This document shows, in pieces, positions 1-21,000 of a DNA stretch of 64,000 nucleotides. Location: the NCBI RefSeq assembly GCF_029227855.1, contig NZ_CP074356.1; one strand, given 5' to 3'. The stretch is from Escherichia coli (GTDB lineage: Bacteria > Pseudomonadota > Gammaproteobacteria > Enterobacterales > Enterobacteriaceae). The position numbers are program-made. Within the stretch, counting starts at the first letter, position 1, and every line of letters starts with the position of its first letter.

Positions 1-3000
1 TGTCTTTGTACGGTTTACCGTTCCACGGACAGAACTGAGCGCAGTTGCCGCATTCGTTACAGTAAGCGTCGAGGTGCAGCGTCTGGAAACGGTTCTGGAA
101 GCCAGGGACCGCAATGGATACGTTGGCGCGGTTCGGGCAGACATCCACACACTTGCTGCAAACGTAGTTACATTCAAGGCAGCGAGCAGCTTCCTGCGCG
201 ACAAACGCATCACGATCGTCACTGTCTACCTGGGTGATAGAGATATCGCCTTTACGTTGATAGATTTCCGCCGGATTGACGTTGTTCCAGTATTTATCGT
301 TCTGGTGGGAACGGATATTTTCCCGACTAAGGATGGCATCGGTCGCCCGACGCGCGGTTCCGACAGCAGCGACAATGGAGGATGGTCCGCGCTGTACGTC
401 GCCGATCATAAAGACGTCAGTCAGACGAGTTTCGCCATTATGGTCGACGTCTGGCCAGCCGTTTTTGTCCAGCGGCACGCCCATCGCATTCAGGGCTTCA
501 GTATCCTGCTGTTCACCAATGGCGGTGATCAGGCTATCTACAAGCAGTGTTACTGTTTCGTTGGTTTCAACCGGGCGACGACGACCTTTCTCATCCGGTT
601 CGCCAAGCGACATAACGCGCAAGGTTAAGGTGCCATCAGCATCGAAACGTTCCGGATTATTCAGGAAACGGAACTCCACGCCGTCGTGCAACGCTTCTTC
701 ATACTCTTCGCGCCATGCGGGCATCTCTTGCAGTGAACGACGGTAAACGATCGTTGCTTTTTCTACGCCTGGAACGCGTAACGCCGCACGAGCGCAGTCC
801 ATTGCCGTGTTACCCGCCCCGACAACGACCACATGTTTGCCCAGCTTGAGCGCTGTGCCCTTGTTGTATTCACGCAGGAAGGGGAGTGATTTCCAGACAT
901 TTTGGTTGTCGCCCGCCAGTTTCACACCGCTATTTTTATCAGTGCCGGTGGCAATCAGAACATAGTGGAAGCCCTGATTTTTTAACTGTTCAACGGTCAA
1001 ATCGGGTGAGCAGCCATACTCAAATTTCACGCCGTGATCGGCAACAAAATCGATATCGTGCTGAATTAACTCTGCAGGAATACGGAACTGAGGAATGATA
1101 TTTTTCACCACGCCGCCCGCATTGGCTTCGCGTTCAAACAGCGTAACCGGATGGCCCGCTCTGGCAAGGAAGTAACCTGCTGCCAGACCCGCCGGACCTG
1201 CACCAATCACGGCAACCGGATGGCGTGAACCAGAACCGGCTGGTTTGTGCCACCGTTGCTTATATTCATCCCAACCTTTTTCCAGCGCGACTTTTTTCAG
1301 TTCGCGGATATTCAGCGCACTGTCGTAATCCAGGCGGGTACAGTTGTATTGGCACTGGTGATCGCAAATATGACCGGTAATGGCGGGCAGGGCGTTGCGT
1401 TGGTAGATGAGTTCCAGCGCGTCAGCATAGCGGTGTTCGCCAAGCAGCCGAATGTATTCCGGAATATCTTGCTTGATAGCGCAGGCAGTAACACACGGGG
1501 CAACGTAGCAGTCGGTCAGCGGCAGGTCTTCTGCCACTTCAATACGCTCTTCTGGCTTCCAGTGTTTCTGGGTGTATTCCATGGTTAACGCGTCTGCTGC
1601 CAGTCTGTTCAGTCGTTCGACGTCAACATGGTCAAGTCCCCAGGCGTCGGAGCCTTCCAGCTCGCGCATGCAGGCACTTAAGCGCAGATAGCCGCCAGGT
1701 TTCAGCAGGTCGGTTGCCATAGTGATAGGGCGAATACCAGTATCAAAAATATCGCGGATAGTCAGCTGACTGGCACCACCGGAATAAGAAATGGGCAGTT
1801 TGCCGTCAAAGGCGCGAGAGAGAACTGCTGCAACATTGATGGAGAGCGGGAACAGCGCACGGCCTGACATATACATCTCTTCACCAGGCAGTGCGCCTTT
1901 ATTGTTGATGGTGCCGAGAGTGTTAGTCAGTTTTACGCCAAAGCCGAGTGATTTTTCTTTTGCCAGTACCATCAGGCGTTCCAGCATTTCCAGCGCTTGC
2001 GTCAGCTTGAGGTCGTGATCAAATGACTCTTCTTTTAAGCCTATGTAACCGAAACCGCAGACATCGAGGATCTCACGAACACGCGCGTACCCCAGTAAGG
2101 TCGGGTTGAGTTTCACAAAGGTATTGAGCCCTTTTTCTTCCAGCATGTAGCGGCAAATGGCTTCGATTTCATGCGGAGGACAGCCGTGCATGGTGGAGAG
2201 GGTAACGCCTTGTACCATGCTGGTGGGGATGCGAGCGGGTAAGGCTTGCAAGCTTTCGCGTTTTTCCTGCAATCCGTGGCGGGCTAAAAATGCGTCATCC
2301 TGGAGTAATTTATTCAGCGTATCGCGATATTGAGCGAATTTCGGATGGTCAGATGCGTCCATCATATTGTCGATGAACTGTTGCATCGGCGGTTGCTTAA
2401 TACCTTCGAGGTTGTAACCGACGCTCATATTAAAGATGAACGATTTACCGGAATCAGAAGGCTGGAACATCGCTTCGAGAAGGTGCAGGGCAAACCAGGC
2501 TTTGAGGTATTCATCCCGGGCTTTAAGCAGGGTAAATTCGGTGGACCATTCGGTGTTAAAGCACTCGTCTTCGGCATCAATACAGGGCTTTTCCAGCTCC
2601 AGGCGGTCAAGAATTTGGACGGTTTTTAGTTCGATGAAGCGTCCGCCAGTCAGCCAGGAAGTGACAATATTTTGCGCGAGCTGCGTGTGCGGGCCAGCGG
2701 CAGGGCCGACGGGAGTGGCACAGGTTTCACCGAAGACGCTAACAGTTTTACCTTTTACGGGTGAGTAAAACTGTTGCTCGGGAATACCAAAGATTGAGCG
2801 TTGTTGTTGGTATTCATCAAATATGCGCGTCAAAAGTTCCTCAAACGGAATGGGACGCATAATATCCCCCATAACCCTCTCCTTAGCTTATACAGATATC
2901 ATTGAGTGACCGGTGTTGAGAAATCCGGTGGTTTAAGGGGATAGAGCAACAATCGCACCACTCTTGCCAGGTTTGGCGGGAAATATAAAAAAATGTGAGG

Positions 3001-18000: not shown

Positions 18001-21000
18001 GCCAGCGCCGCTTCTGGGGTGGTGATAACGGGTAATTCTTGCCACTCAATGCTGACCAATTGCGCCGCTTTTTCTGCCGTGAGTTCATCACGGGCCACGA
18101 CGATGGCAACGGCGTCACCATGGTGACGAACATGGCGAGTTAGCAGTGCGCGATCGGCGGTATCGCGCTTGTTTTCGTCAAGTGTCCAGGCATGCCCAGC
18201 TGTAGCGAATGGGATATCAGGCACATCTTCCCAGGTAAAAATCGCCAGTACGCCCGGTAAACTTCTGGCTTGTTCATCATTAATACTTACGGCATAACCA
18301 TGTGCGATAGGGCTACGTACATATTTCGCGTAACACATGCCCGCCATAACATAATCGTCAGTATATCGTGCCCGCCCGGTGACCTTAGCAATGGCATCTA
18401 CGCGCATGCATGATTCACCTGTAGCGGTTGCTTCCCGCGCTTCCATAGAAATCCCCTCGATTTGAACATTTGGTTCTTATGGCAAAGATTTAGTCTAAGC
18501 AGGCAAGATTTACGCCAGAAACGACGATAAGCGTTAGGGGAGGAAGGAAGTGTGATGACGTTAAAAAAACACAGATATGATACGAAACAGGACTCTGAAT
18601 AGGGGCAGTGATACGTATCAATATGAGTGGCGATAAAATCAATGTGATAAATCAGGATTATTACGCATCAGGATGGGAAATAGGGTAAATGAGTCAGGAA
18701 ATTCGATACATCTACAGTGAATATTTTGCTGATGATACTTCCCTTTGCCAAATGAAATTAACCTCTTTCTCTATTACCGCGTTTTTCCAGAAGCAAGAGA
18801 TTGGGTATCAAGAGGCTGGCTGCTATGATATGGCGTCTTGTTTTTTAAGCGAGGAAAGATTTTGAGTGCGGGACGCCTGAATAAAAAATCTCTGGGTATC
18901 GTGATGTTGTTATCGGTTGGACTGCTTTTGGCGGGCTGCTCGGGTAGCAAATCATCCGATACAGGAACGTATTCCGGCTCCGTTTACACCGTGAAACGGG
19001 GGGATACGCTATATCGTATTTCGCGCACCACGGGAACCAGCGTAAAAGAGCTGGCGCGACTGAACGGCATTTCCCCCCCTTACACCATTGAAGTTGGTCA
19101 GAAACTAAAACTGGGTGGGGCGAAAAGTAGCAGTACACGTAAATCAACCGCCAAATCAACGACCAAAACCGCATCGGTTACACCGTCATCAGCAGTACCG
19201 AAATCTTCCTGGCCGCCAGTAGGGCAACGTTGTTGGTTATGGCCAACGACAGGGAAAGTTATCATGCCGTATTCGACAGCTGATGGCGGCAATAAAGGGA
19301 TTGATATCTCAGCTCCACGGGGTACACCTATTTACGCCGCGGGTGCAGGAAAGGTGGTGTATGTGGGCAACCAGCTGCGTGGCTACGGTAATCTCATCAT
19401 GATTAAACACAGTGAAGATTACATTACGGCTTACGCCCATAATGACACGATGCTGGTAAATAATGGGCAAAGCGTGAAGGCTGGGCAAAAAATCGCCACT
19501 ATGGGGAGCACTGATGCGGCATCGGTTCGCCTGCATTTCCAGATTCGTTACCGTGCAACGGCAATTGATCCGCTACGTTACTTGCCGCCTCAGGGCAGCA
19601 AGCCAAAATGCTGATGGCGAATTAATCAGCAGTCAGCAGCGCGGCACTTGCTAAGGAGAGCGTAAGGTTTATAATGCCTTACGCATCTCGAAGCGGGCGT
19701 AGTTCAATGGTAGAACGAGAGCTTCCCAAGCTCTATACGAGGGTTCGATTCCCTTCGCCCGCTCCAATTTATCTTCGCCTCATTTACCAGCCATTTTTGT
19801 TGTATCTTATTTCCATATTATCTTAATTCAATCGCTTCAGACTTTTCGCAATCGCCGTAATACTTCCCCATTTTTTTGTAAATAAAAGCGTTTACGCAAT
19901 GCAATCCATTTGTAACAACCCAGGTAAAATACCTTATTTTCAAGTTGTTAAATAAGTGGTTATCTACGCTTTTAACAAACGATTGATGGAATCTTTTATG
20001 AAAGGGAAATCTACATTAACTCTTCTGCTCGCTGGTATATTTTCATGCGGCACATGCCAGGCGACAGGGGCAGAAGTGACGAGTGAATCTGTATTTAACA
20101 TTCTTAATTCCACGGGGGCAGCAACTGATAAAAGTTATTTATCGTTAAATCCAGATAAGTATCCTAATTATCGTCTTCTGATTCACTCAGCCAAATTAAA
20201 AAATGAAATAAAGAGCCACTATACCAAAGACGAAATTCAAGGATTGTTAACATTAACAGAAAATACACGAAAGTTAACGTTGACGGAGAAACCCTGGGGA
20301 ACATTTATTCTTGCTTCTACTTTCGAAGATGACAAAACAGCGGCAGAAACCCACTATGATGCTGTCTGGCTGAGGGATAGTTTATGGGGCTATATGGCAT
20401 TAGTATCAGATCAGGAAAATAGTGTAGCCGCAAAAAAGGTTCTGCTCACTCTGTGGGATTATATGTCTACGCCCGACCAGATTAAGCGGATGCAGGACGT
20501 CATTAGCAACCCAAAACGACTGGATGGTATTCCTGGGCAAATGAATGCTGTGCATATCCGATTTGACAGCAACTCCCCCGTGATGGCAGATGTGCAGGAA
20601 GAAGGCAAGCCGCAGCTGTGGAACCATAAACAAAATGATGCGTTAGGTCTTTATCTTGATCTCCTTATACAAGCAATCAACACTGGTACTATTAAGGCTG
20701 AAGATTGGCAAAAAGGTGACCGATTAAAATCGGTTGCGCTGCTGATTGCTTATCTGGATAAAGCCAATTTCTATGTTATGGAAGATTCCGGAGCGTGGGA
20801 AGAAGATGCCAGATTAAACACATCTTCCGTTGCACTGGTGACCTCTGGACTGGAACGTTTGTCGAACTTACTCTCGAAGAAAGACTCTGTTTTTGTCTCT
20901 GATTTACTACGCGAAGCTAAAGCTGATGAACTGGATGAACCTCTTTCAACAACGAGGTTGAACCACCTCATAGATAAAGGTTATGAAAGAATAACGTTAC

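Follow-up and report, generated by a model that had tools for sequence, protein, structure and literature searches.

Catabolic operons in which a sigma-54 promoter, an activator encoded divergently (PrpR) and catabolite control by CRP come together are known from prpBCDE of Escherichia coli and Salmonella, and they resemble the ygeV locus that we analyse here in a stretch of 64,000 nucleotides of E. coli DNA (contig NZ_CP074356.1, assembly GCF_029227855.1; hereafter the window). A similar system has been described in Clostridiales, where the YgeV-like activator DioR has the predicted site TTATCA-N3-TGATAA with a sigma-54 promoter downstream (PMC6615313). The DioR regulon comprises dpaL-pyrC-argE, ygeW-ygfK-ssnA-ygeY, hyp-xdhABC and yqeC-ygfJ-yqeB-xdhC; its function is listed as unknown, and the authors draw no link to YgeV of E. 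coli (PMC6615313). The three sigma-54 promoters of the E. coli locus, upstream of xdhA, ygeW and ygfK, are themselves already known, having been mapped by published chromatin immunoprecipitation sequencing (ChIP-seq). In our judgement these elements are very probably genuine RpoN -24/-12 promoters, activated by the divergently encoded YgeV (IsrR) through palindromes that lie further upstream.

All three are minus-strand motifs and are present exactly where a preliminary description, made from the sequence alone, had placed them:

2961-2945, minus strand: ygfK -24/-12 promoter, gTGGTGCgattgTTGCt (equal to GTGGTGCGATTGTTGCT); position weight matrix (PWM) score 14.60 bits, rank 5
12597-12581, minus strand: ygeW -24/-12 promoter, cTGGCACacttaTTGTt (equal to CTGGCACACTTATTGTT); PWM score 13.38 bits, rank 7
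18518-18502, minus strand: xdhA -24/-12 promoter, cTGGCGTaaatcTTGCc (equal to CTGGCGTAAATCTTGCC); PWM score 15.87 bits, rank 2

The sites at xdhA and ygfK have GG-N10-GC intact, and GG at -24 and GC at -12 (GT in ygeW) stand in a TGGCAC-N5-TTGCW context, from which the deviations had been counted accurately. If the C of GC is numbered -12, transcription is predicted to start at about 2934 for ygfK (62 nt 5' of the ATG at 2872), 12570 for ygeW (80 nt 5' of the ATG at 12490) and 18491 for xdhA (45 nt 5' of the ATG at 18446). The annotated xdhA start is here 39 nt further upstream than the K-12-based ChIP table implies, so that the distance from start to gene is 84 nt in that table and 45 nt here (window 18407-18446); an AGGGGA ribosome-binding sequence is conserved before the upstream ATG in five genera.

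The 17-mers, their orientation and their downstream genes are identical to OS29-OS31 of Bonocora et al. 2015; what differs is the annotated xdhA start and the strain, as the window matches E. coli JNEC-KY178 (100% identity over the 4 kb tested) rather than MG1655. Each site coincides with an in vivo sigma-54 ChIP-seq peak (PMC4591121): OS29 at xdhA (CTGGCGTAAATCTTGCC; FAT 11, confirmed in EcoCyc), OS30 at ygeW (CTGGCACACTTATTGTT; FAT 3, not listed in EcoCyc) and OS31 at ygfK (GTGGTGCGATTGTTGCT; FAT 26, predicted in EcoCyc). A further peak, OS32, belongs to ygfT (TATGCCCGTTTATTGCA; FAT 3, not listed in EcoCyc). Sigma-54 RNA polymerase occupies the three sites as a closed complex. Because the same 17-mers are OS29, OS30 and OS31, the finding is correct but not new. 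Moreover, microarrays show xdhA to be 4.9-fold up on sigma-54 induction and 2.1-fold down in an rpoN deletion, and ygfK 2.1-fold up and 2.4-fold down, respectively (Zhao et al., PMC2831329); no data on the response of ygeW to rpoN were found in the literature. Genomic SELEX (systematic evolution of ligands by exponential enrichment) gave an in vitro RpoN holoenzyme peak in the ygeV/ygeW spacer (PMC8743547), while a 2025 comparison of sigma-54 regulons holds nothing on these genes (PMC12316311). In PRECISE-1K, the YgeV iModulon groups these genes by co-expression as a putative YgeV regulon, and xdhABC and ygeWXY are mentioned there as having been predicted before, in cited work, to have sigma-54 promoters (PMC10602906). 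This grouping has co-expression as its basis and gives no binding site; it includes ybiY and rcsB, and is without yqeA, yqeB, yqeC and mocA (PMC10602906). The regulon under YgeV and sigma-54 proposed in the preliminary description matches the current published view, which is supported by the ChIP-seq, microarray, SELEX and iModulon data and by reports on ygeV and ygfT.

The scores come from a 17-column matrix built from 130 published ChIP-seq sigma-54 sites (Bonocora et al.), with five sites of this locus excluded, and scanned over both strands of the window (about 128,000 positions). Among the training sites the median score is 14.4 bits and the 25th percentile 13.0, and the three promoters, at 13.4-15.9 bits, are within the range of bound sites. 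We regard them as bound sites of ordinary strength because their scores lie around the training median; the preliminary view that they are individually weak does not hold, and their ranks of 2, 5 and 7 in the window are not below background. In 200 dinucleotide-preserving shuffles, an equal or better site arose on the correct strand within the respective upstream region with a probability of 0.0023 for xdhA, 0.0044 for ygfK and 0.013 for ygeW, so that a sigma-54 motif in sense orientation precedes each gene beyond chance.

The same scan covers several other candidates. For ygfK, Zhao et al. proposed an alternative promoter, TGGCAAGAGTGGTGC (2954-2970), which scores 9.3 bits; its TGGCAA is not conserved, and all seven of its 17 positions that are invariant fall within the overlap with the gTGGTGCgattgTTGCt site. 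We rejected it because of this low score and lack of conservation. Other high matches lie inside genes (57022-57038, 56360-56376 and 45460-45476 on the plus strand; 17049-17065 on the minus strand). The highest of the window (CTGGCACTGGAATTGCT, 16.96 bits) falls at the 3' end of lysA; of the other three, one also lies in lysA, one runs antisense within yqeI and one has the sense direction of xdhA, within that gene. All four are absent from the high-stringency ChIP-seq tables consulted.

For conservation, we compared the ygeV locus of E. coli with that of 11 other genera of Enterobacteriaceae (Enterobacter sp. Bisph1, Cedecea, Pluralibacter, Serratia silvae, Kluyvera, Intestinirhabdus, Raoultella, Trabulsiella, Atlantibacter, Citrobacter amalonaticus and Pseudocitrobacter). 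The diverse orthologues were gathered with the 69%-identical YgeV of Enterobacter sp. Bisph1 as query, the E. coli protein having returned near-identical E. coli sequences only. Each promoter 17-mer is invariant at 14 of its 17 positions, against 5-10% invariant columns elsewhere in the same intergenic alignments. The ygeW promoter reads TGGCAC-N2-TTATTGTT in all 12 genera, and the T at -12, although non-canonical, is always kept. At ygfK the promoter reads TGGTG(C/T)GA(A/T)TGTTGCT in the nine of nine loci that reach it, with TGGTG always kept, and the xdhA promoter reads CTGGCGTA-N2-T-N-TTGCC in all five loci where xdhABC adjoins ygeV.

Further upstream, a palindrome TATCA-N3-TGA(T/G)A is conserved 105-210 bp from the GG at all three promoters, and also precedes ygfT:

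18637-18649, minus strand: xdhA candidate activator site, palindrome copy TATCACATTGATT
18616-18628, minus strand: xdhA candidate activator site, second palindrome copy ACTCATATTGATA, 21 bp from the first
12769-12823, minus strand: ygeW candidate activator region, main copy TATCAATATGAGA at 12798-12810
12769-12781, minus strand: weaker palindrome-like copy at ygeW, TATCAAACTGAAG (at -181 from the GG)
12811-12823, minus strand: weaker palindrome-like copy at ygeW, TATCACATTTCTA
3130-3142, minus strand: ygfK candidate activator site, exact palindrome TATCATAATGATA
3108-3117 and 3048-3062, minus strand: further conserved blocks at ygfK, TTTTGAGAAA and GATTTTAATTCTCAT, with inverted TGAGAA half-sites, invariant or nearly so in the nine-genus alignment

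The two xdhA copies (-127 and -106 relative to the GG) are kept in all five genera with xdhABC at this place, and the 12-mer TATCAATATGAG in one of their arms is also found in the ygeW site. The ygeW region is the most conserved block of the ygeV/ygeW spacer, its main palindrome recurring with at most one mismatch at -209/-210 in 12 of 12 genera. At ygfK the palindrome is exact in nine of nine genera and lies at -157 from the GG, or at -177/-179 in E. coli, Citrobacter amalonaticus and Pseudocitrobacter, which, compared with the other six, carry an insertion of 20-22 bp (3063-3107), about two helical turns, between palindrome and CRP site; it is also present in two loci that end before the promoter. 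Within the window, matches with at most one mismatch number 11 where 2.65 are expected, and of the 20 exact copies that the orthologous loci contain over 303 kb, 17 stand at these fixed positions upstream of the three promoters. Outside the window, a further copy of the ygeW 13-mer TATCAATATGAGA precedes the sigma-54 site of ygfT by 174 bp (L090 6405-6417). Two known sites were considered as the identity of the palindrome and rejected by inspection against consensus sequences: a Fur box would require a kind of conservation that the N3 spacer does not show, and the order of the half-sites is opposite to that of FNR, whose consensus is TTGAT-N4-ATCAA. We infer from sequence comparison that the palindrome is the YgeV operator, because it co-occurs with YgeV-type activators and tracks the sequence of their helix-turn-helix (HTH).

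Beside ygfT, the palindrome sits between the divergent genes uacT and ygfT. A possible sigma-54 site for uacT is CTGGCACTCCACGAGCA (L090 6278-6294, minus strand), which scores 6.7 bits, has an intact GG-N10-GC and is located 56-70 nt 5' of that gene.

Between the palindromes and the core promoters are located CRP-like sites:

18551-18566, minus strand: conserved element TTTTAACGTCATCACA at xdhA, centre -67.5, CRP-like right half-site
12640-12655, minus strand: CRP-like site TGTGATCAACCCCACA at ygeW, centre about -77.5 from the start, one mismatch in the core
3024-3039, minus strand: CRP-like site TGTGAGTTCATTCACA at ygfK, centre -97.5, position conserved across genera
2994-3009, minus strand: CRP-like site TTCGAGCCGCCTCACA at ygfK, centre -67.5, position conserved across genera

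In TTTTAACGTCATCACA, 10 of 16 positions are invariant compared with 5% in the rest of the region, while TGTGAGTTCATTCACA has a perfect TGTGA-N6-TCACA core. The ygeW site is kept with at most two mismatches at -77.5/-78.5 in 12 of 12 genera, and an element TTnnA-N6-yTCACA at -67.5 is common to ygfK and xdhA. The space between activator site and sigma-54 promoter is usually occupied by integration host factor (IHF), and a reasonable reading of this layout is that CRP may serve as a bending co-activator in its place. A 2025 preprint mentions that glucose represses the pathway and that the ygeV/ygeW spacer holds a native Crp site (10.1101/2025.05.19.654654).

The activator itself is a bacterial enhancer-binding protein, with PAS in its N-terminal sensor region, besides AAA+ and HTH_8 domains (Pfam PF13188, PF00158 and PF02954). 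The AAA+ sigma-54 interaction domain that had been attributed to YgeV is borne out by Walker A (GESGTGKE, residue 300), GAFTGA (347) and Walker B (DEIG, 372), and the C-terminal HTH reads LGIGIATLYRK. Its gene adjoins the predicted sites, which at -106 to -210 lie within the 80-250 bp upstream where such proteins bind. The gene has since been renamed isrR and linked to indole sensing and virulence (PMC9426417).

On this evidence, transcription of xdhABC would start from these promoters, as would that of ygfK-ssnA-ygfM-xdhD and of the ygeW operon, which comprises ygeWXY and probably extends into hyuA-yqeA. A YgeV/IsrR oligomer is predicted to bind the palindromes, and the intervening DNA, with its CRP-like sites, would bend so as to bring the activator to the waiting polymerase, where ATP hydrolysis acting through the GAFTGA loop would open the promoter. 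The literature suggests that CRP may tie expression to the absence of glucose, and that the sensor region of YgeV may tie it to a purine/urate-related or indole-related signal.

Several observations weigh against activation of three true promoters by YgeV. With regard to the promoters, the canonical C at -12 is missing in ygeW, whose GG-N10-GT is the only strict departure from GG-N10-GC; the ChIP signal at ygeW is low (FAT 3); mapped transcript 5' ends were not found for any of the three; and the elements at -67.5 of xdhA and ygfK have poor left half-sites for CRP. With regard to the activator, the palindrome is rich in A and T and was assigned to YgeV purely by comparison, no published test of the ygeV dependence of xdhA, ygeW or ygfK was found, and ygeV itself falls outside the YgeV iModulon, a result of co-expression only (PMC10602906). 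Reportedly, ygeV and ygfT are required for formate-dependent urate consumption, according to a secondary description of Iwadate & Kato 2019, and ygfT expression is lower in a ygeV mutant, as described in PMC10602906; the link between the two genes is thus reported through descriptions by other papers.

These points leave room for two other explanations, both of which we consider improbable. According to the first, the sigma-54 holoenzyme is poised or repressive at these sites and rarely or never fires, and the operons run from CRP-dependent sigma-70 promoters. ChIP records occupancy only, and the authors of the ChIP-seq study warn that bound sites need not be promoters and that many may be non-productive (PMC4591121); the conserved CRP-like sites just upstream, the glucose repression of the pathway and an iModulon that is almost always inactive (PMC10602906) would fit as well. 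However, none of the three upstream regions contains a sigma-70-like -35/-10 pair above chance in the right orientation, the xdhA and ygfK mRNAs follow the sigma-54 level both ways, and the positions of the CRP centres (-67.5 to -98) refer to the sigma-54 start and not to any visible sigma-70 start. Moreover, the activator gene and conserved palindromes of activator type accompany every site.

An equally small probability attaches to the second, in which the sigma-54 promoters are real, another enhancer-binding protein (for instance NtrC under nitrogen limitation) activates them and the palindrome belongs to a different regulator. The comparative character of the case for YgeV at the three promoters, the nitrogen-related nature of purine catabolism and the absence of ygeV from its own iModulon speak for it. 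Against it, the palindrome co-occurs with YgeV/DioR-type activators in two phyla, tracks their HTH and precedes ygfT, the gene that secondary sources describe as ygeV-dependent; in addition, palindrome, CRP-like sites and core promoter account for all conserved blocks of the three alignments, with no dedicated scan for NtrC sites having been run. That the three motifs are chance matches is effectively refuted: although GG-N10-GC is a short, degenerate pattern, with seven sites of at least 13.4 bits in the window compared with about 3.5 expected per 64 kb of shuffled sequence and with other high-scoring matches inside genes, the product of the per-region probabilities (0.002-0.013) is about 1e-7, and each site combines its cross-genus invariance with an independent ChIP-seq peak.

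As for the extent of the YgeV/sigma-54 regulon, the claim of a compact regulon is supported for the three operons and overstates the case in covering the whole cluster, because no sigma-54 site or palindrome was found for mocA or yqeC in scans of the window, or directly upstream of xanQ-guaD-ghxQ. The earlier list of three sites, on the other hand, stands but missed the ygfT site and another inside yqeC:

4276-4292, plus strand: weak sigma-54 site TGAGCACGAACCTTGCA inside yqeC, PWM score 9.3, pointing at yqeB

This yqeC-internal site corresponds to ChIP-seq peak IS34 (FAT 7) and is conserved in eight genera, even at the third positions of its CCT and TGC codons, which make up the -12 TTGC. It may serve yqeB, since it is ChIP-positive and conserved at synonymous positions. 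A single transcript from ygeW to yqeA is plausible; its extent is uncertain because terminator-like hairpins on the minus strand follow ygeW (11293-11272) and ygeY (8759-8740), with another after yqeA (6352-6327), and those at ygeW/ygeX and ygeY/hyuA may attenuate transcription within the presumed operon. Both of the latter are GC-rich, the ygeY/hyuA hairpin reading CCCTCCGG...CCGGAGGG followed by TTTTT. In Kluyvera, Intestinirhabdus and Raoultella a gene for a 549-aa transporter of the major facilitator superfamily (MFS) replaces xdhABC beside ygeV. In these genera the gene probably belongs to the regulon as an additional member, as judged from its own sigma-54 site with TATCACTCTGAGA upstream (L083 11965-11981, L084 12154-12170 and L085 11979-11995, all plus strand).

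The 80-nt leader of ygeW (12491-12570) was also examined for structured RNA, which was rejected as RNAalifold gave zero consensus pairs; an Rfam search of 1-20000 returned one tRNA only and no match in the leader. The block GCCnGTCATTCCACTACCAGGA directly before the ygeW start codon is nearly invariant in the 12 genera, beyond the needs of a ribosome-binding site.

The purine and uric-acid cluster lies in 1-19 kb of the window, in reversed K-12 orientation:

ATG at 2872, minus strand: ygfK
3772-3194, minus strand: mocA
3875-4645, plus strand: yqeC
4693-6318, plus strand: yqeB
7291-6359, minus strand: yqeA
8736-7339, minus strand: hyuA
9988-8777, minus strand: ygeY
11242-10046, minus strand: ygeX
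12490-11300, minus strand: ygeW
12966-14744, plus strand: ygeV (isrR)
15263-14784, minus strand: xdhC
16138-15260, minus strand: xdhB
18446-16149, minus strand: xdhA
from 18862, plus strand: actS

Beyond the cluster, the window contains a tRNA-Gly (19693-19763), the E. coli type III secretion system 2 (ETT2) island at about 20800-46000 (eivF, sctC, sctN, eprH-type genes, ygeH and others), in which sctC and YscQ-family genes are frameshifted, and an IS200C transposase near 58.7-59.2 kb.

The cluster encodes the anaerobic pathway with which E. coli in the gut breaks down uric acid, and this pathway is relevant to gout and engineered probiotics (10.1101/2025.05.19.654654 among the sources). Because the promoters were already catalogued, the remaining value lies in the candidate YgeV operator, which could be used to search for further YgeV targets, and in the CRP/sigma-54 layout; the cross-genus conservation, the candidate operator shared with DioR and the arrangement of CRP sites are additions of this analysis.

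The comparison with DioR extends these results to a different phylum. Our contig search for YgeV homologues returned mostly paralogous activators among the matches listed, and seven loci (L001-L007) were used. In L002 and L004 (Sedimentibacter, with three copies, and a Clostridium metagenome-assembled genome) the palindrome lies upstream of consensus sigma-54 promoters that adjoin YgeV-like activators and uricolytic genes. The LGIGIATLYRK of E. coli YgeV is identical in these homologues sharing the palindrome, while homologues with TCCCA-N3-TGGGA carry LGISKTTLYRK and those with TCTCA-N3-TGAGA carry LGISRATLYRK. Over the full length, YgeV and the Clostridial homologues are 35-39% similar, with conserved gene neighbourhoods. 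In Citrobacter werkmanii (L003), a 38%-identical YgeV paralogue is divergent from a pair of ygeX/dpaL-like and ygeY-like genes, with its own sigma-54 site (CTGGTAAGCATTTTGCT; 9697-9713, minus strand) and upstream repeats of the TATCA/TGATA type. Enterics would thus seem to have a second module of this family, smaller than the first.

The DioR system is thus like the ygeV locus in its YgeV-like activator, its overlapping targets (dpaL/ygeX, ygeW-ygfK-ssnA-ygeY, xdhABC and yqeC-ygfJ-yqeB) and its upstream site, as the sites of ygfK, ygeW, xdhA and ygfT, each with a sigma-54 promoter, match the published DioR sites. It is unlike the ygeV locus in its phylum and in a protein identity of 35-39%; furthermore, the Clostridial promoters match the consensus (TTGGCA-N6-TTGCT) and CRP is not involved. 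We lean towards the view that YgeV/IsrR is the enterobacterial counterpart of DioR on the same TTATCA-N3-TGATAA palindrome, both representing one ancient module of activator, site and sigma-54 promoter for reductive uric-acid degradation in Bacillota and Enterobacteriaceae, to which the weak, non-consensus cores and intervening CRP sites of enterics would add catabolite control. If true, this would provide a concrete YgeV operator that could settle whether IsrR acts directly on the virulence genes in the enterocyte effacement locus (LEE). The resemblance to prpBCDE is less complete, since PrpR senses 2-methylcitrate and uses IHF, unlike the YgeV promoters, where CRP would take part.

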